Positions 688 to 12,417 of a DNA stretch of 12,421 nucleotides are shown one piece after another. How positions within the stretch are numbered: position 1 is the first letter of the stretch; each line of letters begins with the position of its first letter. The notes below the pieces were generated by a model. That model was not told where the DNA came from. It was given only the letters and a program-made list of their open reading frames with translations, and searched no databases. Source of the DNA: Candidatus Zixiibacteriota bacterium (lineage in GTDB: Bacteria > Zixibacteria > MSB-5A5 > GN15 > JAAZOE01). The position numbers were made by a program, and so were the translations under genes. Location: contig JBDREQ010000017.1 in NCBI GenBank assembly GCA_043819555.1, forward strand, positions 1 through 12,421. Reading direction: 5' to 3'.

Positions 688-1037
688 TTGAGATATTAAA
701 AGGCAGCCAATATAACATGGTTTTTAGACAGTCAAATCGATGATATTAACGAAGCTCGCCACCGTAAGCGGATGCGGTATTAAAATCGTAATAAATCCTT
801 GTTGCCCCAAACGGCAGCTATGTTTCTGTTGGTCCTATGAGACTTTACGTACCTTTGTTGGAATAAGACCATCAATTAAGGGGTCTATTCAGATCAATTG
901 ATGAAGGAAATCCACCGAAAAACATCAATCTTTACAACGGCGGTTTGTTGGAACGGAACCATGATAGGCAAGATCCTGGTAAAAAGGCTTCGGTTTATCC
1001 TCACTATGACCAAGCAATTTTTGTGAACGCGTACTAT

Positions 1038-1889
1038 CTATTGTACCCCGGGAACACTAGCTTTGATTTCATATTGTGCAATTTCCGGCAACCCAATCTG
1101 TTCCAGCAAGGCATCGCGCTTTTTTCTTAACTTTACATCATGCGGTGAGATTTCAATCAAAGCTGAAATTTCAGCAAAAGCGTCATACCAAATCCCTGCA
1201 GCCGCATATATATTAGATGCTATTGCTTTATCTAAAAGAGATAGTTTGGCCTTCAACTCATCTGAAATTTCAATGTATTTGACAGCCCCCCATGCAAGAA
1301 TGTCTTTTGAGCGGCGGTTCGGATCGGGTATTATTGCTATAAACCACTTATAGACCAAACCTTGCTGGAGATGCACACCATAGTCGACTAACCGAATAGT
1401 CCGGATACCCGGCTGCACAGGAGCGCTAAGGCGCGTTTCTAAGAGTGGGTAGATTGCCTGATCCTCAATGACGGTTAGTTCGATGGGATGAGTTGTCAAT
1501 TCCCTAAGAAACCAGTAGAGTCGGGGTTGATCTCGGACTGTCAACGCCGTGTCATCCGGTGTAATAACGCATAGAAGAGAAGGGTATTCATCCAAAATAC
1601 CTCGTGTTCCTCCTGCTATACGACCTACCGGCGCGCCGCGAAGAGGAGGTCTGTAAGCCGGCATACGAGCAGGGGATGTTATCTCTTCCTTCTTTAGCTT
1701 TATATCCGGGGATCTTGATTTTCTTTTTTCAGGTACCATATTATCATCCATTTTGGATTTTTCGTCTATTGCCTGGACAATCTTTTGTAGTTCCTCCTTA
1801 ATTTGATCATCTGAGGCAAAAACTGACTGAGGCATCAGTAAAATATATCCTGCAATTATAATCCACGTTGAAAGGTTGATATTCGACAT
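1038..1889 (-). CDS. DUF928 domain-containing exported protein (283 aa)
   Basis: N-terminal signal-peptide-like segment (WIIIAGYILLMPQSVFA|S); G-A-P-x-G-R-x-A-G-G-T-R-G motif; LT...QP.LYWF; L..G..YKW; C-terminal YAAAGIWYDAF...P.D..L...LLEQIGL, all typical of DUF928. AGGAGG RBS at 1896-1901. Confidence 0.88.
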   Translation of the reverse strand: MSNINLSTWIIIAGYILLMPQSVFASDDQIKEELQKIVQAIDEKSKMDDNMVPEKRKSRSPDIKLKKEEITSPARMPAYRPPLRGAPVGRIAGGTRGILDEYPSLLCVITPDDTALTVRDQPRLYWFLRELTTHPIELTVIEDQAIYPLLETRLSAPVQPGIRTIRLVDYGVHLQQGLVYKWFIAIIPDPNRRSKDILAWGAVKYIEISDELKAKLSLLDKAIASNIYAAAGIWYDAFAEISALIEISPHDVKLRKKRDALLEQIGLPEIAQYEIKASVPGVQ

Positions 1890-1895
1890 AGCATG

Positions 1896-1901
1896 CCTCC
1901 T
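1896..1901 (-). promoter_or_regulatory. Shine-Dalgarno site of the DUF928 gene
   Basis: CCTCCT on + (AGGAGG on -), 6 nt upstream of the ATG at 1889. Confidence 0.8.
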
Positions 1902-1920
1902 GGAATTTATTTCTGGGTTT

Positions 1921-3822
1921 TCACATTCTGCCCAGGATTTGGTAAATGGTTATTTTCTGCTTCTTGCCTTTGAGGTTCTCTTTTCCAACCATCTGACTCT
2001 TGAATTGATCGCCCAGGTAATAGATAGTTGATTCTCCAATCAGAATGCGACAAAGACTTTCCTTAGCAAAGTTTTGGTCATAACTTTCAAGTCTTGCAGC
2101 GATATTGACCGTATCTCCTATAGTTGTATATTTTAATCTTCTTGTGCTTCCTAATGCTGCGGCCACTACAGATCCGGTAAAAATCCCGATGCGTATTCCT
2201 GTACTGGGAAAGTTCTGCTTACGCCAGAGATTATTTAGTCTGCGAATTTCTCTTTCCATGGCAAGGGCACAATTTACCGCATTGACAGCATCCTGGCTAA
2301 TCTCATCCTGGGTGTTTCGAGGTAGTGGTACGCCAAAATTGGCCTTGATACCGTCGCCGAAATAATCGTCAACGACACCCCCATGGTCCATCACCGCTTT
2401 GGTCATGGATTCCATATAAGTATTCAGCCAATCCACAAACGAATTCGGATCCAGCTTTTCAGACAGCGAAGTAAATCCTTTCAAATCTGAAAACAATACA
2501 GTAACGGTTAATTTTTGAGGACGAGGGCGGCCATTATTTAAGAATTCTTCTCGCTGCTGCCATATAGAATCGGCAACCTCAGGGGAGACGTATCTTGAAA
2601 ACAATTGCATCAGAAGTGACCGCTGCTTTTTCTCACGGTTCGACATATGAGCGGTAACAATAGAGGCGCAAATAAGCCAAGACATGGCTGGAGGAACAAC
2701 CGGAATCCACCATGCTCTCAAAAAGGCAAGATATGTAATCAAAAATAGGGTGAGAAGATTGGCTGAGCCAATCAGTGAAAAGTGCCAAGGCGACCTGATA
2801 CGGAACCCTATTAGGCCTCCCATCACACTCCAGATCAATATCCACACCATTTCTTGTTTTTCGCTGACACTTTTTCTGGGGCGTCTTCCCTCAAGGGCTA
2901 ATCTTAGCAGCTGGTTTACGATATGAGCGTGTACAACAACTCCAGATAGTTGCTGATGCATTCGAAATCTTCGACTGTGTGGTGTATAAAAAAAGTCTTT
3001 CACGCTTTGAGCCATAACGCCTATGATGATAATTTTGTCTCTAATATCCTTCGAAGGAACTTTCCCGGACAAAAGGCTTGTCAATGAAAATGTTTGAAAT
3101 ATCTCCGGGGTACTGCCAAAATCAACTAAAAATTGATATCCTCTTGCATCTGCTCGAACATATCCACCTTCGTTTGGTTCCAGGGGGGGAATAGTAGTTC
3201 CTCCAAGTGCAATATACTGCGGATTAGACAAATCAGGTTGCGGTAGAATGCCTTCGACCCGCAAATATTGTAATGCCAGTCGTAGGCTGAAAGAATAAAA
3301 TATTTTTTCACCATCATCTAAAAAAAGCAGCCCTCGACGAACAATTCCGCCAGGGTCAACCAAAATATCATTGAAGCCTACCCGGTCAGTATCACTGATC
3401 ACGTGAGGCGGCGGTACTCCATTATCCCCGAATTTCGATACCGCTATGATATATTGATTTTCTTTAAGAATTGAATCGAACTCCTCACTTCCGGGCGGCA
3501 CACCGATATCTCGAAAGATATCCAGACCTATTGCGCGCGGTTTATAACGAATGAGAGTATCAAGCACCTCCGCCATGGTTGCATCCGTAATTGGCCAGCG
3601 CCCCTGAGTTCGAATATCGTCTTCAGTTATTCCGATGATAACAATGGGTGGTGATGATCCGGAAGTTTCCGGCTGTAATCTGACAAATCCATCATACGCC
3701 AAAAGCTCAAGATACTCGAGGTACCCCGCACTGCGTAAGGCGATGATGGCCAAAAAAATAACTCCACTGACCAAAATTGTTGTAATATAGGGAAAAAATG
3801 GTAGACTGCGTAATTTAACCAT
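1921..3822 (-). CDS. CHASE2-domain membrane-bound class III adenylate/guanylate cyclase (633 aa)
   Basis: N-terminal TM helix; CHASE2 motifs (LELLAYD, IVIIGITEDDI..GRWP, PRAIGLDIFRD, D.GG.VRR, KIIIIG, GVVVHA); three TM helices; cyclase core LFSDLKGFT (D446), GD (D490), IRIGIFTGSVV, GDTVNIAARLE (N573/R577), LKGK. Confidence 0.95.
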   Translation of the reverse strand: MVKLRSLPFFPYITTILVSGVIFLAIIALRSAGYLEYLELLAYDGFVRLQPETSGSSPPIVIIGITEDDIRTQGRWPITDATMAEVLDTLIRYKPRAIGLDIFRDIGVPPGSEEFDSILKENQYIIAVSKFGDNGVPPPHVISDTDRVGFNDILVDPGGIVRRGLLFLDDGEKIFYSFSLRLALQYLRVEGILPQPDLSNPQYIALGGTTIPPLEPNEGGYVRADARGYQFLVDFGSTPEIFQTFSLTSLLSGKVPSKDIRDKIIIIGVMAQSVKDFFYTPHSRRFRMHQQLSGVVVHAHIVNQLLRLALEGRRPRKSVSEKQEMVWILIWSVMGGLIGFRIRSPWHFSLIGSANLLTLFLITYLAFLRAWWIPVVPPAMSWLICASIVTAHMSNREKKQRSLLMQLFSRYVSPEVADSIWQQREEFLNNGRPRPQKLTVTVLFSDLKGFTSLSEKLDPNSFVDWLNTYMESMTKAVMDHGGVVDDYFGDGIKANFGVPLPRNTQDEISQDAVNAVNCALAMEREIRRLNNLWRKQNFPSTGIRIGIFTGSVVAAALGSTRRLKYTTIGDTVNIAARLESYDQNFAKESLCRILIGESTIYYLGDQFKSQMVGKENLKGKKQKITIYQILGRM

Positions 3823-3837
3823 GATGGCTTTTCAGTT

Positions 3838-6252
3838 TTACAACCAGTTGCTAATCAATAGAAAAGGAGACCAATAGCCCGGGTGCTGAAAACGCCGATC
3901 ACCGAAAAGTCTCAATTGTGCACGCTGAAGAGCTTTGGCCCTGGTCGTCGTCGGCCCCTGAAGTTGGCGGTAAAATTCTCCAACCAAAATGGATGAAGCT
4001 AAATCATTAATATGCCAGAGCGTAGCAAGAGCACTTCTAGCACCGGCCTTAATGGCTATACCGGCAAGTCCTAAAGCAGCCAAATCATCACCAGCAGCAG
4101 TTTCACACGCGCTGAGTGTCAGGATTTCCAAAGGGTTATCACGAAATTGAAGCAGCCCAATATATCGATTTAGATTGTCAATTGATAGTTTTTCGTCAAA
4201 TGTAAGAAGGAACGTTTTGTCAACCTCATTTCCAAACTGGGCATGGGAAGCAATATGCAAAATGGTATATTGTTCATCATGTAAATATTTTTCAATATTC
4301 GAAATGAGGAAATCCTGATTGAGTAATAACTTACTGGCATAAAGATTTTGGATGGTCCGCAACTCTGAAGAAATATAAGGCATGGATGGAAATCCTTGAA
4401 CAGATTTCGTTAATGCAAATATCAGAGCTTTTCTAATCTCCGCTGCAATGGGTTTGGGGTCAGTAAGATCGAGACTCGGCGTAATCGCAAGTGCATATTT
4501 TTCGATTAGAAATTGATTGCCATCATGAAGGGCTGCCATAGGAATTGTCCGCAGAGGACCGTCTGGAACGAAGACCATTGTATCAATGGTGCTGGAATCC
4601 AAGTCGGATTCCATGGGGCGGATAAGCCAGTCGTAAAGCTTTTGGGCGTGAGGAAGAAATTCCCGGGTCGTTCGCTTTTCCAGCATTTTACGAAACGTCT
4701 TAACCTCTTGGGCGAGGGTTTCTTTTCTGACTTTCACAGTAAACCTCTTCAAACCATCAGGCAGAGTGAAAAGCACTTCGGTACGGTCTTTTAGTACGAT
4801 AGGATAAACAATCACCGCTGCCTTTGAGACTTCATCAAGCTTAGTAATTCCTAATCGGGCAGCATCTACACAATCGTCTTGATAGTAATTACGCAATTCA
4901 TAAATCTTTTGTAGCTCCACGACCTCACGCGCTTCAACAAGATATGGCTTATACTTATCGGGCTCCTTAATTGATGCAGCACGTTTAAGAAGCAAATCTG
5001 CTAATTCAAAACTAACTTGTGCAGTGCTTTCACGGATTGTGGAATGATACCTTCCATAACACCCGGACGTTTCTAAACGAATTGATTGAAGTGTATAGAG
5101 GGTACTCCTGTAATGCGAAATGGCGTTATCAATTTTATCCAATGATTTTAATATTCGTCCCGCTTGCCACTGCCACCTGAATAGTGCCTCACCGGCACTA
5201 ATTTCTTGTGCCTTAAAAATTGCCATTCGCGTTAAATGCTGTGCTTCCTGATACCGCTGTCCGTTTTCATATAAATTTCCCAAATAACCAAATGCATAGG
5301 ACAACGCGAGATTGTCATCAATTATTTCAGCAACATCGGCAGCCTCATTGAACATTTCTGAGGCTAGTCTCAAGAGTAAATTCTTTGATTCAGGAAAATA
5401 TGGAAATAAAGTTTGATATGCCAAACCTATATTGATCAGTCCATATGCTTTGATGTGTGAATCTTCCAAACTCCGAGTCTGAACCAAAGCTTCATACAGC
5501 AGCGATTTAGACTTCTCATATTGTCCGTTTCGCATTGTAGCCGTCGCCGCGTTTGTGAGTGCTATCCCTCTTAATTGACGGTTACCGATACTTTCTGAAA
5601 GCATCACGCTTTCCATGTATGCGTCATAAGCTTCATTGTATTTTTTCCCATTGGTGTAAAAGTTCCCCAGATTATTGAGAATGGATGCCGTAAGTTTGGG
5701 AACCCCCAAATTTCTAGACATCTTAAGACTTTCATCCAGATATCGATAAGCTTCATTTGTCTGACCCACTCCAAGGTAGATACTGCCGGTAAGATTTAAA
5801 GCCAGGGCTACTCGGATTTGGTCGCCCGAATCTTTTGCCACTTCAATAGCTGCTTTTGAACTTTCCAGGGCATTTTCGAATTGTCCGATGGACTGGTATG
5901 CCTGAGAGAGTTGAATAAGTGTTTCGCATTGTTTTTTAAGGTTTTTTTCTTTCCCGTATAAACGTACAGCATCTTCAAATTTTGAAATCGCTTGATCGAA
6001 AGCACCTCTTTGAAAATATTGTATACCTTCAGTTAGCAATTTTTTTGATGATTGTTCACTTGGTTGAGAGGATATGCTTGCTAATGTTTGATCTTCAACT
6101 CTCTTTTGGGGCGTGCAACCATAAGATAAAATTACAAGAATGCATGTCATCCATAGGCTGGGGGAAAAAAGAAAAAATAATAAAACCAATAACGGCCGGG
6201 TGTATTGACGCTTGCGCAGTTGCCTTTTTTTAATTACAATACTTAAGCTCAT
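3838..6252 (-). CDS. TPR-repeat + CHAT domain protease (clan CD, caspase/separase-like), probably exported or a lipoprotein (804 aa)
   Basis: Multiple TPR-like repeats (ALALNLTGSIY..G...EA..YL..SL; ASILNNLGNFY; LSYAFGYLGNLYE). CHAT motifs LYDWLIRP, FVPDGPLRTIPMAAL, ILHIASHA (H670), LTLSACETA (C716), AGARSALATLW, ALQRAQL, HPGYWSPF. Basic plus hydrophobic N-terminus ending LSYG-C46. Confidence 0.95.
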   Translation of the reverse strand: MSLSIVIKKRQLRKRQYTRPLLVLLFFLFSPSLWMTCILVILSYGCTPQKRVEDQTLASISSQPSEQSSKKLLTEGIQYFQRGAFDQAISKFEDAVRLYGKEKNLKKQCETLIQLSQAYQSIGQFENALESSKAAIEVAKDSGDQIRVALALNLTGSIYLGVGQTNEAYRYLDESLKMSRNLGVPKLTASILNNLGNFYTNGKKYNEAYDAYMESVMLSESIGNRQLRGIALTNAATATMRNGQYEKSKSLLYEALVQTRSLEDSHIKAYGLINIGLAYQTLFPYFPESKNLLLRLASEMFNEAADVAEIIDDNLALSYAFGYLGNLYENGQRYQEAQHLTRMAIFKAQEISAGEALFRWQWQAGRILKSLDKIDNAISHYRSTLYTLQSIRLETSGCYGRYHSTIRESTAQVSFELADLLLKRAASIKEPDKYKPYLVEAREVVELQKIYELRNYYQDDCVDAARLGITKLDEVSKAAVIVYPIVLKDRTEVLFTLPDGLKRFTVKVRKETLAQEVKTFRKMLEKRTTREFLPHAQKLYDWLIRPMESDLDSSTIDTMVFVPDGPLRTIPMAALHDGNQFLIEKYALAITPSLDLTDPKPIAAEIRKALIFALTKSVQGFPSMPYISSELRTIQNLYASKLLLNQDFLISNIEKYLHDEQYTILHIASHAQFGNEVDKTFLLTFDEKLSIDNLNRYIGLLQFRDNPLEILTLSACETAAGDDLAALGLAGIAIKAGARSALATLWHINDLASSILVGEFYRQLQGPTTTRAKALQRAQLRLFGDRRFQHPGYWSPFLLISNWL

Positions 6253-6313
6253 AACCTGCCCCTGCCATTTTCAAGAAGAATAAATGAAGTCAATCAATAT
6301 CTTCTATTACTCT

Positions 6314-8044
6314 TTAAAACGCTGAAACAGCAAATTGAAAACTAATTCCTTTGTCTTGCATATTATTTTCTATATCGATATCGACATCTCTAAGTTTATA
6401 GCCATAATAAATTTCAAATTGCGGTCTCAGACGAAGGGAAGGAAAAAAAGTAGCAGCCCATCTCAATCCAACTCCAATACTGTAAATGTTTCTAGGACCG
6501 GAAGGAGTCGGAAAGTCGGTATTCTTAGCCCATCCCCAATCAAAAAAAGGGACCACTTGGAGGTAATCAGCCCAGGGTTTATCACGTATCAACGAAATGC
6601 GAGATTCAAATGAGGCGACCACGGCATTGTCACGTACAAAAAAGTTTTCGGGGTATCCGCGAACGGTGTATCTACCCCCCACGGCAGCCTGTTCAAGCGA
6701 TATAAGAGGGTCGGCGGAAAATTGTAATAGAGTTCGAAAAATCAACTGGGTGTCCAATGGTTTAAAACGCCTTGCCCATTGAAACTGCCCCAGCCATAAA
6801 AAAAATTCCCCGTCCGGAAGTCCGGTTATACGTGTCGTAGCGTCAAGGGCATCGATTCCCAGGCTGAAACGAGATCTTGCCGCTATTACCTGTTTCTGTG
6901 TTCGATACATCCATTCCTGCGCAAAACGCAATGGGGTAACCTTAACTTCACCATCCACCTCACCAGGTTCAAATGAAAAAGGGTTGTCCAGTAAGGTTGT
7001 TTTTTGTTTTGCGTGTTCCCCGATAAGAGATAGTGCAAACTCCTGGCTTAAACTTCTGTAAATAGGGTATCTCAAAGCGATGGAGTATATATCTGTATCG
7101 GTTTCAATATCCAAATCTTCAAACGCTTCTCTAACAAGATCAAAATCATTTTTTCTGTACCTCAAACTTAAGGTTATGTCTCTAGCCGTGAAGGGGAATG
7201 AATACCAGGCATCGATTTTGGGTTTCAGCCCCTCCGCCTGGCCCCATGTAAAGCTTAAAATGTCACCGTTCCCCGTCAGACTAAGAGCCTCACCGGTAAG
7301 CTGTACCTGCTCACCTCCGACGCTATCGGATATGTAGTTGTCATATCCGGCCCAAAATTTGAGGGGTATCTTTTCTTCAACAACCAGGTTTAAATCACTT
7401 TCACCGCGTTTTACACCGGGTTTAAGTTCCGCATTGATTCTCTGAATGCGTGGGTCTTCCTGTAAAATTCGTAGCCTTTTCTGCAAATTCTCTATTTTTA
7501 CAGGCGGCCCGGCTCCAAGAGCAATCCGTTTCTTATAGTAGCTGTCACGAAGATACTTATTGTCTTCGATTTCTATGTTTTTCAACTCGCCTTCGATAAT
7601 GTGTAAGCTGATTACACCGTCAACCACGGTTTGATCCGGAATGACGGCACCGGATGTAATATACCCTTTGGTGATATAAAAAAGTGTCAGGTCCTTGCGA
7701 AGCACCTCCAGGTTTTCGCTTGTTAATTCGCGGTTTTCATAAGGCGCCGTTACTTTTGCCAGTTCTTCATCAGAAAAAACCGTGCTGCCCGTCACAATGA
7801 TTTTGCGAATATAAACGCGCTCAAAAGGTAATTCACCTGGTTTTTTTTGGGGAGGGGGAGATGGCAGTGGTAAGATCAATTTCGGAGGAGGACCGGGTGG
7901 TTTTTCTTCTATCAACGGCGGGCGTTTATCACCGGGTTGCCCGCTCGGTTCCATGGGAATCGGCTCTTGTGCAAAAGCTGAATTGCCTGCCATAAAGGCA
8001 ATAATCAATCCGGCCAGAATTAATGTAAATTTGTAGGCGTTCAT
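6314..8044 (-). CDS. ShlB/FhaC/HecB-family two-partner secretion outer-membrane transporter (TpsB); alternative GTG start at 8059
   Basis: Signal peptide ending AFA|Q; Pro-rich linker; POTRA-type segment (I.VTGSTVFS..EL......YEN.EL....L......T.FY..KGYITS); second POTRA (I.AELKPG...GES.L); Omp85 loop-6 motif TVRGY; FFDWG; C-terminal Phe (FQFAVSAF). Confidence 0.95.
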   Translation of the reverse strand: MNAYKFTLILAGLIIAFMAGNSAFAQEPIPMEPSGQPGDKRPPLIEEKPPGPPPKLILPLPSPPPQKKPGELPFERVYIRKIIVTGSTVFSDEELAKVTAPYENRELTSENLEVLRKDLTLFYITKGYITSGAVIPDQTVVDGVISLHIIEGELKNIEIEDNKYLRDSYYKKRIALGAGPPVKIENLQKRLRILQEDPRIQRINAELKPGVKRGESDLNLVVEEKIPLKFWAGYDNYISDSVGGEQVQLTGEALSLTGNGDILSFTWGQAEGLKPKIDAWYSFPFTARDITLSLRYRKNDFDLVREAFEDLDIETDTDIYSIALRYPIYRSLSQEFALSLIGEHAKQKTTLLDNPFSFEPGEVDGEVKVTPLRFAQEWMYRTQKQVIAARSRFSLGIDALDATTRITGLPDGEFFLWLGQFQWARRFKPLDTQLIFRTLLQFSADPLISLEQAAVGGRYTVRGYPENFFVRDNAVVASFESRISLIRDKPWADYLQVVPFFDWGWAKNTDFPTPSGPRNIYSIGVGLRWAATFFPSLRLRPQFEIYYGYKLRDVDIDIENNMQDKGISFQFAVSAF

Positions 8045-8096
8045 AGGTCCAGAGTTCACCCCCGCCCGACGGATGGCAGGCGGAATTCAGGGTTAC
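8033..8096. repeat. Short repeat element, copy 1 (GTAGGCGTTCA...GGGTTAC), overlapping the tpsB start codon
   Basis: 8033-8051 GTAGGCGTTCATAGGTCCA matches 8106-8124 GTAAGCGTTCACAGGTTCA at 16/19. Both copies end in GGTTAC. Internal GC hairpin CCGCCCGAC/GGCAGGCGG at 8062-8083. Confidence 0.55.
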
Positions 8097-8105
8097 CTTT
8101 CTTTC

Positions 8106-8173
8106 GTAAGCGTTCACAGGTTCAACGCTCATGAATCAACGGTTCAGATTGGACGTGAACCCTGAACGGTTAC
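8106..8173. repeat. Short inverted-repeat element, copy 2 (68 bp, REP/MITE-like)
   Basis: Left end GTAAGCGTTCA and right end TGAACGGTTAC (reverse complement GTAACCGTTCA) match at 10/11, extending imperfectly (GGTTCAACG / CGTGAACC). Internal GGTTCA units. No target duplication found. Confidence 0.7.
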
Positions 8174-8235
8174 CAAAATAGCTATTTCAGATGAATGCCA
8201 ACTTTTTAGTTGCCCGACCATATATGACATAATCA

Positions 8236-11175
8236 TCACGGTATGAGGGGGCTCGGCAAAAGACCACCCGGCTCAATGGGCAAGGCATCGCGGCCCTCAA
8301 CCGTAAAACTGCTGTATTTTCCTCCGGAAATCCGGGCAATGCAGGGTTCACGAAGAAGGGCGACAGCGCTCTTATATTCTTCGGATAAAGGTTTCAAGCT
8401 TTGGGCGACGACTTTGACTGGTGCGCGAATATCAACAACCCCGTCAATTCCCAATTGAGACGAAGCATCCACTACGCTATCCAGGTCGGCAATAAAAACA
8501 TCCGCAGTGATCCGGATGGTACCCCCTCTACCTTCAAAAGCATTCGCAATAATTTTGCTGTTTGACAGGGTGACAAACTCGGGGTCAATGTTGATGTTTC
8601 CGCCCACCGTATCACGACCCCCGCCAACGCTGGCGGTAATTTCGCTGTCCCATATAACCATAGACTCCGTATTAATTTTGATATTGCCGCCATCGGATTT
8701 TTTCGCTTCGGTGGTTACAGCACTGTCTTTCATCCAAAATGTATCTTTGGCTGTAATATCGATATTACCGGCATTACCTTCGCCGGAGCTTTCGGCCGAT
8801 ATCACTGTCCGATTAGTTAGCCGCACTTGCCGTGCCGTGAGGGTGATGTCGCCCCCGACAGCCTGTTCGGCAACTGTTGATATCGAGCTGTTGCTGCTAC
8901 TGATTGCATTATTGGCGTTGATATTGATATTTCCTCCATCGCCCCGACTTGTTGAAAACGCCCCTATCGTCGCGTGATTCTTAAGATTCAAATTGTTTGC
9001 CTGAATGTTAATATCGCCGGCATCGCCCGTAGCCTGATCGACAAAACCCTGGAATATAGTACTAGAAGTAAAAATGCCGGCATTTGGTCCATCAATAGAG
9101 ATCGAACTCGGATCAACGCCTCCAATGTCCACATGATTTGCGATGATGTCTATTTTGCCGCCCATTCCGGGCCCTGTCGTCCGGGCGGTGATCTGAGCAC
9201 CGTCCAGCACTTGCAATTTATCTGTTTCCACCCTGATATCTCCTGCACCGGTGGCGAATATACCACCAATGGCAAAAAGACCGGTAAATTCGTTCTCAGG
9301 ACTCGGGCCCGCAACTAAAGTATTGTCAGCCTCAACCGCTATATCGCCGGCTTCACCGGTACCAAAATTCGTGGAACTAAGATAAGAACCATCTGAAACC
9401 GTTAAATTGCTGGTTTTGACAATTATATTGCCACTGTTTCCGGGACTTTCAGAATAGGTTCCAATCTGACCGGACGCTTTCATCTGTAAGTCGTTAGCGT
9501 TAATGAGAATATCACCTCCGGTTCCGGTAGTAGCGGCACCGGCAACATTTGAATAAATACCTGCCGAAAACCCCCCAGGATTCTTGCCGGAGATAAGAAT
9601 ATCATCAGCTGTCACTTCTATGGTGCCTGCTTGCCCGGCCCCGCTGAATATGCCTGCATTGAATTGGGCGCCATCAAACAATTTCAGGGTGTCTGTGTTT
9701 ACGCTTATTTTGCCGCCATTGGGATCACCAATTCCAGTGGAAACCTGAGATGCCAATCCGGTAAAACCGCCTTCACCACCTTGGATGACAACCTCCTTTG
9801 CATTGACGGTAAGGTTGCCGGCATCACCGGAAGTGGCCGTGTACCACGGAGCGAACGTACTGGTCGATATGAAACATAGACTCGGTCCGCCGTCAATCTG
9901 CAAGCTATCCGTCTCTATCGTGATATCGCCTCCGATGCCGGAGCCGAAAACCTGGGCCAAGATGCCGGAAAATTCATTCAGATGCAAGCTGCCGGTTTTT
10001 ATAAATATGTCTCCACCGTCACCTGAGTAGAAAACCCTTGAAGCAATATCAGCGATTCGGGTGAATTCAGGTGCGCCGGTCAATTGAAAACTGCCTGCCT
10101 CAATCTCTATGTCTCCTGCATCTCCGGTAGCGCCTTGTAGGGATGACGTTGAGATTTCGGCAGCATTTAATTCCCCTGCTGTAAGAACCAAATCATCGGA
10201 TACCTTAATATCTACCCCGATACCGGGATGATCTATATCCCCGTTCGTTGCAGCTGACATGATGCTCTCGGTTAAAAAGAAATTTCCTCCCCGGATGATA
10301 ATATTACCGCCGGGGTTACCTATGGCATTAATGTACGCACTGCTGGAGATGTTAATATTCCCGAGACGATCGAACGACTCCATTTTCAAGTCGGGTACTT
10401 CTCCTGGTGCATTAAAAGCAACTTCCCCGGCAGAGGCGACGCTTGCAATGTTAACTCTTCCACTCGGAGCGACAATGACCTCTTGGGCTTGATCAGGTAT
10501 CCCACTGCCAACTATTTCAATGTCTCCGCCAACTAGAGAGAAGGTTTCGCCATGGGGAACTTGTAAACTACTTTGCTGGATTGTAATCCCGGCCGGGTTG
10601 CCGCCTAAAAATCCAAATGCCGATGGCGGATCAATAGAGAGTGTGCTATTTTCTGATAACCTGGCATAAAAAACACCATCATCTCCAAGTCGAAGAAAAT
10701 CCGCTGTGCTAACATGGAATGACCCGCTGACATCCAAGCTGGCATTTGGACCAAAGAGAACCCCACCCGGGTTTAGTAAATACAGGTTTGCCCCGTTGAT
10801 CTCTGATCTGAGAAGTCCATCAATGAAAGACTGGCTGCCTCCCGTAACCCGTCCAATAATATTATTAATCGTATTTGGACCGGTAAAAGTTGCACTTTCT
10901 CCTTGGAATAAATTGAATTGGCCAAAACTATGAAACTGATTGCTCCCGCGTATGGTACCCTCACTGATGGTATAGTTGGACTGATCTAAAGCAACATTGG
11001 AGCCCAAAGAACCGTCAGGAGTCATCGAGGGTTCCTGGGCATGATTGATAGCAGGTAGCGTATTTAAAACCAGGATTGCAAATATCAGGAAAGGGATTAC
11101 GTTTACATTGAATACAAATAGACGGGGTGGCTTTAAAAGCATTTTTTGCTCCTTTCTTATTTTTTTAACATTCAT
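8236..11175 (-). CDS. Filamentous haemagglutinin family TpsA exoprotein with TPS secretion domain and beta-helix repeats (979 aa; alternative start 11142)
   Basis: Signal peptide ending INHA|Q; TPS domain (NQFHSFGQFNL, NIIGRVTGG..S.IDG, ANLYLLNPGGVLFGPNASLDVSGSFHVST); about 18 G-x-(A/G)-G-(D/N)-I-x-I repeats; C-terminal C...SSF...GR..LP..P motif; adjacent to tpsB. Confidence 0.93.
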   Translation of the reverse strand: MNVKKIRKEQKMLLKPPRLFVFNVNVIPFLIFAILVLNTLPAINHAQEPSMTPDGSLGSNVALDQSNYTISEGTIRGSNQFHSFGQFNLFQGESATFTGPNTINNIIGRVTGGSQSFIDGLLRSEINGANLYLLNPGGVLFGPNASLDVSGSFHVSTADFLRLGDDGVFYARLSENSTLSIDPPSAFGFLGGNPAGITIQQSSLQVPHGETFSLVGGDIEIVGSGIPDQAQEVIVAPSGRVNIASVASAGEVAFNAPGEVPDLKMESFDRLGNINISSSAYINAIGNPGGNIIIRGGNFFLTESIMSAATNGDIDHPGIGVDIKVSDDLVLTAGELNAAEISTSSLQGATGDAGDIEIEAGSFQLTGAPEFTRIADIASRVFYSGDGGDIFIKTGSLHLNEFSGILAQVFGSGIGGDITIETDSLQIDGGPSLCFISTSTFAPWYTATSGDAGNLTVNAKEVVIQGGEGGFTGLASQVSTGIGDPNGGKISVNTDTLKLFDGAQFNAGIFSGAGQAGTIEVTADDILISGKNPGGFSAGIYSNVAGAATTGTGGDILINANDLQMKASGQIGTYSESPGNSGNIIVKTSNLTVSDGSYLSSTNFGTGEAGDIAVEADNTLVAGPSPENEFTGLFAIGGIFATGAGDIRVETDKLQVLDGAQITARTTGPGMGGKIDIIANHVDIGGVDPSSISIDGPNAGIFTSSTIFQGFVDQATGDAGDINIQANNLNLKNHATIGAFSTSRGDGGNININANNAISSSNSSISTVAEQAVGGDITLTARQVRLTNRTVISAESSGEGNAGNIDITAKDTFWMKDSAVTTEAKKSDGGNIKINTESMVIWDSEITASVGGGRDTVGGNINIDPEFVTLSNSKIIANAFEGRGGTIRITADVFIADLDSVVDASSQLGIDGVVDIRAPVKVVAQSLKPLSEEYKSAVALLREPCIARISGGKYSSFTVEGRDALPIEPGGLLPSPLIP
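8510..10320 (-). repeat. Protein-level beta-helix repeats within tpsA
   Basis: Recurrent units such as GDAGDIEIEA, GDGGDIFIKT, GIGGDITIET, GDAGNLTVNA, GQAGTIEVTA, GTGGDILINA, GNSGNIIVKT, GEAGDIAVEA, GDAGDINIQA, GNAGNIDITA, GRGGTIRITA, spaced roughly 28-45 aa apart. Boundaries approximate. Confidence 0.85.
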
Positions 11176-11269
11176 TAAATTAAAAGAAAGGAAGTTTTAA
11201 TTGACATTAAGCGAGAAATTCTAATAAGACAAATTTAGGATTAATTTATATTTACAGGTAATTAACTTT

Positions 11270-11361
11270 GATGGTTTCGTAAAAAGTCTGATTTTCCCTT
11301 TCATCCGGATTCCCGCGAAAGCGGGGATCCAGACGTTAAGATGACTTTTTACGATTTCATC
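11270..11361. mobile_element. 92-bp MITE-like element with terminal inverted repeats, 6-bp target-site duplication and internal REP-like hairpin
   Basis: TIRs GATGGTTTCGTAAAAAGTC (11270-11288) and GACTTTTTACGATTTCATC (11343-11361) match at 16/19. Flanked by AACTTT at both 11264-11269 and 11362-11367. Internal stem-loop GGATTCCCGC-GAAA-GCGGGGATCC at 11307-11330. Confidence 0.85.
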
Positions 11362-11478
11362 AACTTTATTTTTTGAATTGTATTTAAAATTTAAAGAAAT
11401 TTATCTTTTTTTCTTTCTCGACCAGATTATCAGGTATTAATGTTTTTTAAAGCTTGTATTATCCATAAACATAGCATG

Positions 11479-11613: not shown

Positions 11614-11910
11614 TTAGATGACTTTATCAAACAAAGCCAATGTGGAATCTGACTGGTCCAAATTCGAGTCAATGCCGATGCTAAGATTACTTCCTTCTCT
11701 CAATATAGATCCTAACCTCTGTATATCGATTTTTTCATTGCCTATCGTTTCTTTAAGCATTTTGCCAGATGCAACTCCCTGATCCTCATGAGCTTTAGCA
11801 TGAAGAGCGAGAGCCTTTTCCATACCTACTTCTTGTGCAACAACCTTGAAAAATACCCCGTACAGGCCATATAGTTTTGTTGCGACCTTGAAAACCTCAT
11901 CTTGTGCCAT
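11614..11910 (-). pseudogene. Probably C-terminally truncated small protein resembling the L-2-amino-thiazoline-4-carboxylate hydrolase / V4R-like family
   Basis: Strong AGGAGG RBS (11916-11921). N-half VAQEVGMEKALALHAKAHEDQG...MLKE resembles this family. The expected downstream C-P / Cys-containing half is absent in all three frames after STLALF (~11630). Confidence 0.5.
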
Positions 11911-12126: not shown

Positions 12127-12417
12127 TCAGATCCTATTTAAGTGATCTCTCAGCTTCCCAGAACATTTAAAAGTGACGACCTTCCTCGGCGGCAGGATCA
12201 GGTCCTCATCGTTGGCCGGATTTCTCCCTCTGCGTTCCTTTTTGTCCCTGACCTGGAACTTCCCGAATCCCGATATTAAAACATCCTCACCGGATTCCAA
12301 TGTGCGCTTTGTGATTTCCAGAAGAGTTTCGGTGATGTCTGTGGCTTGTTTGAGGGAATAGCCGTTTGCGGTTTGGATAGCTGAAATGATATCCGCCTTG
12401 GTGAGGGTCTTTGGCAT
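12127..12417 (-). CDS. ihfA: Integration host factor subunit alpha (HU/IHF family, 96 aa)
   Basis: TLTKADII, LESGEDVLISGFGKFQVRDKKERRGRNP, ILPPRKVVTFKCSGKLRD are the IHF-alpha signature, including the intercalating-arm RNP. Confidence 0.93.
   Translation of the reverse strand: MPKTLTKADIISAIQTANGYSLKQATDITETLLEITKRTLESGEDVLISGFGKFQVRDKKERRGRNPANDEDLILPPRKVVTFKCSGKLRDHLNRI

Follow-up and report, generated by a model that had tools for sequence, protein, structure and literature searches.

The window analyzed here is an entire contig of 12,421 bases (JBDREQ010000017.1), binned to a Candidatus Zixiibacteriota bacterium. Five stop-free open reading frames (ORFs) lie on its minus strand in the order TpsA, TpsB, TPR-CHAT, CHASE2-cyclase and DUF928, with 176, 61, 15 and 31 bp between them (Table 1). 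An earlier sequence-only reading had described five intact, co-oriented genes with the last three of these gaps, which we confirm, and had proposed that their products form a signaling system across the cell envelope. Each product matches its Pfam families over the cut-off: TPS in TpsA; POTRA_2 and ShlB in TpsB; then TPR and CHAT, CHASE2 and Guanylate_cyc, and DUF928. The claim that every product has an export signal or transmembrane helices also held. N-terminal hydrophobic segments, called from hydropathy and by eye without a signal-peptide predictor, occur in TpsA (residues 19-37), TpsB (6-24), CHAT (23-41), CHASE2 (9-27) and DUF928 (10-24), and the CHASE2 protein has further segments past its sensor (326-340, 350-368 and 373-391).

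Table 1. Coordinates of the module and its parts in the window (aa, amino acids).
Feature	Position	Strand	Description
tpsA	8236-11175	(-)	979 aa; signal region; TPS domain (aa 51-293); beta-helix-type body with repeats; conserved tail at the C-terminus
TpsA C-terminal tail, aa 911-979	8239-8445	(-)	Cys945 at 8341-8343; not covered by Pfam; putative anchor of TPR-CHAT in the periplasm
tpsB	6314-8059	(-)	581 aa; Omp85-type outer-membrane transporter, POTRA_2 and ShlB barrel, C-terminal Phe
TPR-CHAT caspase-like protease	3838-6252	(-)	804 aa; predicted exported
TPR-CHAT residues	Cys461 4870-4872; His670 4243-4245; Cys716 4105-4107	(-)	also Cys398, Asp750 and a possible lipobox Cys46
CHASE2 cyclase	1921-3822	(-)	633 aa; CHASE2 aa 21-337, 1+3 membrane helices, class III cyclase aa 438-630
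DUF928 protein	1038-1889	(-)	283 aa; predicted exported; signal peptide, variable linker, conserved motif, Ig-like and TPR-like domain
Most conserved DUF928 stretch, aa 77-97	1599-1661	(-)	candidate cleavage or docking site (putative role)
Block common to window and L001	1055-11159		89% DNA identity; unrelated flanks

The same five genes stand in the same order on a second contig, L001, where the common block covers 10,116 bp. All five are under purifying selection, with ratios of nonsynonymous to synonymous substitution (dN/dS) of 0.20-0.32 between the window and L001. A public contig from run X1 spans positions 874-8204 with 9 differences; X1 may be the source sample and is thus not independent. 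Of 22 runs examined for expression, none is listed as an RNA holder, which is evidence in neither direction. Promoter and terminator scans of the locus gave counts at chance level (25 vs 24.6 and 12 vs 12.3). We then compared 79 metagenome loci drawn from the best 80 of 354 confirmed hits, a nonrandom set biased to close relatives. DUF928 stops at a contig edge upstream in 23 of them; at the 56 with an upstream gene, that gene is the cyclase in 44, CHAT in 6 and another gene in 6. Fourteen loci extend 5 kb upstream, and these hold CHASE2 (14), CHAT (12), TpsB (10) and the TpsA tail (10). The secretion pair can stand upstream in the same orientation as the other genes or downstream in convergent orientation, and TpsB lies on the opposite strand downstream of DUF928 in 32 of the 79. 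Since the set persists through these changes of gene order, the parts appear to be inherited as one unit.

Whole genomes gave a similar picture, and the co-occurrence expected by the sequence-only reading was found there as well as in gene neighborhoods. Among 401 genomes of one phylum, DUF928 occurs in 7 and the TpsA tail in 6, all 6 among those 7; two of the six tail-positive genomes contributed rows to the tail profile. Without the center genome, the tail is found in 5 of 400 genomes, all within the 6 that have DUF928 (hypergeometric p 7e-11, a value overstated by the non-independence of kin and by one of the five genomes having given a search-profile row). The CHAT subfamily is present in 5 of 5 DUF928-positive genomes tested and in the loci of the other two. 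One genome, G558, has DUF928, tail and CHAT on three separate contigs, all present. The presence of CHAT in the bin's own phylum was discarded as evidence, being uninformative at 211 of 285 genomes. We conclude that the module is real, widely inherited and conserved, and we are highly confident that its five genes form one functional unit.

At the surface end, TpsA has an N-terminal signal followed by a two-partner secretion (TPS) domain (PF05860, E 6.7e-40), its sole family match, and a body that carries the repeats D1/D2. The adjoining TpsB joins POTRA to an Omp85-type barrel (PF08479 and PF03865). By their domains the two are a true TPS pair. The middle of TpsA is its most variable part, at 29-42% identity in 14 of the 15 related loci with a full TpsA and 84% in L001, as expected of a surface-facing recognition region. 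Its last 109 residues match 3935 cluster representatives, and the 150 best of these all have an equivalent of tail Cys945. The window's tail contains this one cysteine, and 82 of the 150 related tails contain at least two.

The third product matches CHAT with E 3.4e-56 (PF12770). All 76 aligned rows keep His670, Cys716 and Asp750, which bears out the earlier placement of the catalytic cysteine at C716 and identifies the protein, as far as its residues tell, as a true member of the CHAT family. A CHAT profile search returned weak matches to Csx29-type chains only (E 0.05 and 1.1), and a single-sequence PDB search with residues 440-804 gave no match. A fold comparison made with the model of a fused homologue, rather than of the window protein, gave craspase Csx29 and separase as the best matches (Foldseek E 1.6e-16 to 8EEY) and also matched DdvA. 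The TPR part is conserved to the same degree as the other genes. Where it is a separate protein, the protease lacks a TPS domain and carries an N-terminal export signal of its own, which resembles a lipobox in 7 of 23 loci. A periplasmic location is therefore probable, an arrangement that would keep the tail inside and the beta-helix outside.

Some loci have a damaged protease gene. At L079:1-6869 and L084:1664-3799, exported Peptidase_C14 genes, two with WD40, lie upstream of CHASE2-DUF928, and TPR-CHAT is truncated or missing. We rejected these caspase genes as replacements for CHAT since L079 retains a truncated CHAT, so decay is equally likely. At L029:3-1977 the TPR-CHAT gene is in pieces while CHASE2 and DUF928 are intact; the next gene joins a metallo-beta-lactamase-fold domain to a cyclic nucleoside monophosphate (cNMP)-binding domain.

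The link between tail and protease emerged from long CHAT relatives, of which 328 were found. Of the best 120, 114 carry PF05860 and are thus TpsA-tail-(TPR)-CHAT fusions, and all 120 retain the catalytic His-Cys dyad and the Asp750 equivalent. A noncatalytic cysteine, Cys461, is invariant in tail-bearing forms, split and fused alike. The tail cysteine (C945) and C461 are both present in 112 of the 120 and both absent from 8, with no discordant case. Since the dyad is retained throughout, Cys461 tracks the tail and not the active site. Exactly three cysteines lie past residue 45 in 50 of the 112, namely the tail cysteine, the C461 equivalent and the catalytic one, and 81 of 111 fusions have no cysteine between the first two. 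Fusions and cysteine covariation together support a physical link, as the sequence-only reading had supposed, and the TpsA tail very probably contacts TPR-CHAT. The simplest reading of the cysteine pattern is a Cys945-Cys461 disulfide, which we consider probable. Of 19 loci compared, 11 share the window's pattern of one tail cysteine with Cys398 in CHAT, 5 have two tail cysteines and lack Cys398, 1 fits neither and 2 are uninformative (two rows were taken from total cysteine counts). We speculate that each split form would hold one disulfide and one free thiol, poised for exchange upon docking.

At the other end of the module, the DUF928 monomer model (predicted local distance difference test [pLDDT] 81.6) shows an immunoglobulin (Ig)-like sandwich with TPR-like helices after it. 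The structure that it matches best is the MtxA C-terminal domain (PDB 4Z29; Z 9.9, root-mean-square deviation 4.5, 156 aligned residues, next row Z 6.5; Foldseek E 2.3e-5) at 14% identity, and a profile search of DUF928 against 4Z29 gave no sequence-profile match. One Atlas cluster, in which 14-15% of the members carry MtxA families, scored 0.82, which we treat as a lead only. MtxA is exported, and in magnetotactic bacteria the gene after mtxA encodes a CHASE2 adenylate cyclase (PMC4439547). DUF928 and MtxA are thus two proteins with one fold, each with an export signal and each encoded beside a CHASE2 cyclase. Unlike DUF928, MtxA has an extra N-terminal beta region, and the passages of PMC4439547 consulted name neither a TPS pair nor a protease.

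We modeled the DUF928-CHASE2 complex, an interaction that the sequence-only reading had put forward. The prediction scored 0.55 against 0.09 for the best control, which supports the interaction weakly. Of 157 solved complexes 116 reached the mark, as did 2 of 215 mismatches, but only 18 of the 157 and both of the mismatches did so at 0.60 or less, counts that are only rough with the alignments used; runs agree in at least 44% of contacts, with partner pLDDT of at least 75. Solved relatives of the DUF928 or CHASE2 chains, sought by sequence, were not found. Because adjacency, the MtxA parallel and the complex score point the same way, we think it likely that DUF928 binds CHASE2. The one paper on DUF928 found in the open-access literature searched notes a CHASE2-DUF928-WD40 cluster in Nostoc (PMC5587647).

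The most conserved part of DUF928 is a Pro/Gly/Arg-rich stretch, residues 77-97, in which Arg96 is present in 112 of 112 rows. It lies mostly upstream of the Pfam model, has low confidence in the monomer model, and fits the profile of a candidate cleavage or docking site. DUF928 may accordingly be a substrate of the protease, a step about which we are somewhat doubtful. Two DUF928 calls occur at 5 of the 79 loci, as genes side by side or in tandem within one protein (L062:2863-4320; L028, L031, L065 and L066); the L062 product is a single tandem protein of 486 residues. No DUF928 fusion was found among 7999 candidates of 593-2000 residues, which is weak evidence.

The cyclase residues D446, D490, N573 and R577 are present in the window and in 39 of 39 loci. 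Among 39 hand-picked neighbors, genes for cNMP-binding proteins adjoin 4 loci, and one further locus has a neighbor resembling a class II phosphodiesterase. Intact catalytic residues and the cNMP-binding neighbors at 4 loci support the cyclic-nucleotide output that had been proposed. The pocket of the window protein reads D486/K493/K564. Residue 486 aligns with Glu488 of Synechocystis Cya2 (PDB 2W01), a CHASE2-regulated class III cyclase in which changing that glutamate to lysine converts a guanylyl into an adenylyl cyclase (PMC5995499). The adenine-specifying lysine is not present in the window, where Asp486 holds the position. Asp486 and Lys564 fit the guanylyl type of Cya2, which also has an acidic residue at the first position and lysine at the second. 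Unlike Cya2, however, the module has Asp for Glu, Thr for Gly at 566 and an extra Lys493, so the assignment is tentative; Lys493 is not in any of five PDB alignments compared. The loci fall into two pocket states in which the positions vary together: an acid or Asn at 486 with Lys493 and Lys564 (26 of 39 loci and the window), and Lys or Gln at 486 with a hydrophobic residue at 493 and Glu564 (13 of 39).

By its residues, then, the pocket is guanylyl-like and rewired. Because Asp occupies the guanine-specifying position of Cya2, cGMP is likelier than cAMP, and we cautiously favor cGMP as the output in this clade. An output of cAMP, or of both, is considerably less probable, and another nucleotide or an inactive cyclase less probable still. 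A single-sequence PDB search with the CHASE2 domain gave no match. The output domain itself appears exchangeable, since at cyanobacterial plasmid loci the CHASE2 protein before DUF928 has an N-terminal CHAT and no cyclase in 2 of 3 examined (of 17 hits). These CHAT-CHASE2 fusions, directly before DUF928 at L004:9149-11719 and L005:9425-11767, combine a cytoplasmic caspase-like output with the same sensor. In two other variants, a Cya2-type CHASE2 cyclase (37% identical to the window's sensor) replaces the usual one upstream of CHAT-DUF928 (L076:4162-6333), and a FecR-domain gene and a CHASE2 gene are divergent from DUF928 (L059:1-2256), linking the module to FecR-type CHASE2 partners.

Taken together, these features fit an outside-in envelope relay, the reading that we favor with modest confidence; proteolysis, the signal and the direction of signaling are what we infer. 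TpsB would export the beta-helix of TpsA, and secretion would halt early, leaving the tail in the periplasm, as the fusions with a folded TPR-CHAT after it suggest. There the tail would hold TPR-CHAT, probably through the Cys945-Cys461 disulfide to which the genomic pattern points. Contact, pulling or release of the filament would shift the tail and activate the protease, which could cleave DUF928 within its conserved, flexible stretch around Arg96, or else cleave the tail of TpsA. DUF928 may sit on the CHASE2 domain, and its processing would switch the cyclase, whose product, probably cGMP, would be read by cNMP-binding proteins elsewhere. A bolder version makes the secretion-arrested filament a touch or tension antenna, the thiol-disulfide-joined protease the agent that turns DUF928 by cleavage into a CHASE2 ligand, and the output domain swappable, as a cAMP-type or, in the window, a rewired cGMP-type cyclase, or as a cytoplasmic CHAT in cyanobacteria; we hold this version to be rather unlikely. 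The sequence-only interpretation thus stands in part, in its co-inheritance, its link between tail and CHAT, its DUF928-CHASE2 partnership and its cyclic-nucleotide output; it is changed by the guanylyl-like pocket and by the narrower role of DUF928 described below.

The module would work most like the NsrA-CyaK system, with a proposed protease step like that of DdvA and an anchor like that of CdrA, and is a member of none of these. In Sinorhizobium meliloti NsrA-CyaK/CyaD1/CyaD2-Clr, an outer-membrane protein is needed to activate inner-membrane CHASE2 cyclases on an outside protein signal (PMC13001267, PMC7529298), a precedent for surface-to-CHASE2 signaling through a class III cyclase of the kind found here. 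It differs in that the module's surface part is TpsA/TpsB with a ShlB-type barrel (NsrA was compared by description), that a protease and DUF928 stand between, and that the pocket is guanylyl-like. DdvA of Myxococcus xanthus (PDB 8RW5/8ROT) is a periplasmic TPR-CHAT protein proposed to start trans-envelope signaling by proteolysis (PMC11506125), and the fused homologue model has the same TPR-CHAT fold. DdvA, however, is a single membrane-spanning chain that frees an extracytoplasmic function (ECF) sigma factor, whereas the module's protease is separate or on TpsA and its output is a cyclase. We found no zinc anti-sigma match in the CHAT protein (Pfam: TPR and CHAT only) and no sigma gene in the window. 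Csx29 and separase share the TPR-CHAT fold and have allosterically gated His-Cys dyads, but they are cytoplasmic and gated by Cas7-11/RNA or securin, unlike a CHAT with an N-terminal export signal. No Cas7-11 or Csx30 ORF lies within the window.

Several observations weigh against the relay. The losses of the tail cysteine and C461 are confined to two lineages, and a tree test of the pattern had no power, with a single independent pair on the starred branches (p 1). In an AlphaFold2 model of a natural fusion, TPR-CHAT is confident and the cysteine-bearing tail residues 48-79 have pLDDT below 50; docking was not reproduced. Genome G603, which may be incomplete, pairs TPR-CHAT with DUF928 at L102:7273-10529, with TpsB nearby, but gave no match to CHASE2 or to the tail. 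CHASE2 occurs in 237 of the 401 genomes and DUF928 in 7, so DUF928 would serve a subset of CHASE2 proteins and cannot be a general CHASE2 ligand. Among the precedents, deletion of mtxA was without phenotype (PMC4439547), and DdvA dyad mutants were wild-type-like in the resting state, with no activating signal found (PMC11506125). Separases cleave after Arg and craspases after Met or Leu (PMC11506125); an Arg specificity for this CHAT, and hence the DUF928 cut site, is a guess. The relay as a whole is drawn from genes and models, as are the activity, binding and expression that it presupposes.

The strongest competitor, though we think it unlikely, is regulated release of an adhesin in the style of CdrA and LapG. 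Here a TpsA adhesin or coat, anchored by its cysteine tail, would be freed by CHAT cleavage, CHASE2/DUF928 would either govern the protease or signal the condition of the coat, and attachment would be co-ordinated by the cyclic nucleotide, with the signal running mainly inside-out or in parallel. The parallel is close in that CdrA of Pseudomonas aeruginosa is a TPS cargo with a C-terminal cysteine-hook anchor, freed by the periplasmic protease LapG in a second-messenger system (PMC11898600). Related tails with at least two cysteines (82 of 150) could form such a hook, and the protease is already joined to its would-be substrate in most of the best long relatives (114 of 120). The window's tail, however, has a single cysteine, apparently paired with the protease, and 81 of 111 fusions lack a cysteine between the tail cysteine and C461. 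The protease is a clan-CD CHAT instead of LapG, and the membrane partner, with CHASE2 and Guanylate_cyc, would make a cyclic mononucleotide rather than read cyclic di-GMP; a LapD-type receptor is not known to retain the full synthase active site seen here. Nor would release alone account for the co-occurrence of DUF928 and the tail in one small set of genomes. A study of TpsB proteins in Anabaena reportedly linked them to S-layer secretion, which could bear on an adhesin or coat. The relay and adhesin release are not mutually exclusive.

Three further explanations were weighed. TPR-CHAT might bridge the TpsA tail and DUF928/CHASE2 conformationally, as a scaffold whose dyad serves self-processing or turnover only. 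The CHAT site of DdvA is incomplete and resting (PMC11506125), the TPR part of the module is as conserved as its other genes, and the proposed protease substrates are candidates; yet His670, Cys716 and Asp750 persist in every aligned row and every fusion, and we consider a scaffold improbable. Delivery of CHAT as a contact-dependent effector carried by TpsA, with DUF928/CHASE2 giving protection or feedback, would place the protease of the fusions at the C-terminus, where contact-dependent toxins sit. Against this, the split CHAT is equipped with a separate export signal and lacks a TPS domain, the 65-residue tail is conserved and not polymorphic, and the next genes are TpsB or CHAT/CHASE2 with no small variable immunity gene downstream, so that neither CdiBAI nor effector delivery in general is at all probable. 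Least credible is that TpsA/TpsB/CHAT and CHASE2/DUF928 are unrelated modules hitch-hiking on one mobile cassette. The block does move as a unit between unrelated flanks in the window and L001, and cyanobacterial plasmid loci have CHASE2-DUF928 with varied neighbors, but the set is retained through inversions and fusions, G558 keeps its parts on three contigs, and in most loci the gene joined to CHASE2/DUF928 is CHAT, not TpsB.

If the relay is correct, it would put TPS, known for toxins and adhesins, to a new use by wiring it to a second-messenger cyclase. CHASE2 is a common sensor, and what CHASE2 sensors detect is a long-standing question; in the bolder version of the relay, the DUF928/MtxA fold would be the first class of protein ligand for these domains, and the whole a pro-ligand cascade that works by proteolysis across the envelope. 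The module would also supply, for a caspase-like protease of the periplasm, the first substrate and the first trigger, the point that DdvA leaves open. The module supplies three named candidates: the cysteine pair C945-C461, the cut site in DUF928 residues 77-97 and the binding pair DUF928-CHASE2. Each part belongs to a known family and the system appears new as a unit, with partial precedents in NsrA-CyaK, MtxA, DdvA and CdrA-LapG. We found no study of the five-part module in the open-access literature (most subscription journals lie outside its coverage), and no open-access paper on CHASE2 with cyclase and CHAT domain, or on CHAT domain with hemagglutinin and cyanobacteria. In the accessible parts of PMC2853523 and PMC3501461, the only CHASE2 link mentioned is to metacaspase-CHASE2 fusions.

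The contig itself appears foreign to its bin. Of 285 genomes in the bin's phylum, the bin alone has DUF928, and the L001 contig that matches the block is deltaproteobacterial. The tetranucleotide profile of the block is farther from the bin than all but 3.3% of the bin's 299 chunks. Homologues of the flanking integration host factor (IHF) gene share no more than 37% identity with it in 40 relatives of the bin and up to 65% around G285. A palindromic element at 11260-11371, which folds strongly (z -4.9) and is repeated in deltaproteobacterial genomes, occurs within the bin on this contig only, with 0 copies in a same-genus genome and 15 in G689. Because of the IHF identities, the palindromic repeat, the tetranucleotides and the rarity of DUF928 in the phylum, the whole contig looks deltaproteobacterial, and it has either been mis-binned or entered as a recent island. 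Two cNMP-binding proteins and two further cyclases encoded in the bin therefore cannot be assigned to the module, which is itself unaffected by the origin of the contig. A second intergenic palindromic element, at 8086-8125 between tpsA and tpsB, attracts many variant contigs. Outside the module, the minus strand carries an IHF-alpha-like gene (12127-12417), a 98-residue ORF with no family match (11614-11910) and a 134-residue ORF (283-687) with a below-cut-off match to type I-G CRISPR Csb2 (E 0.0099) that is probably a remnant.

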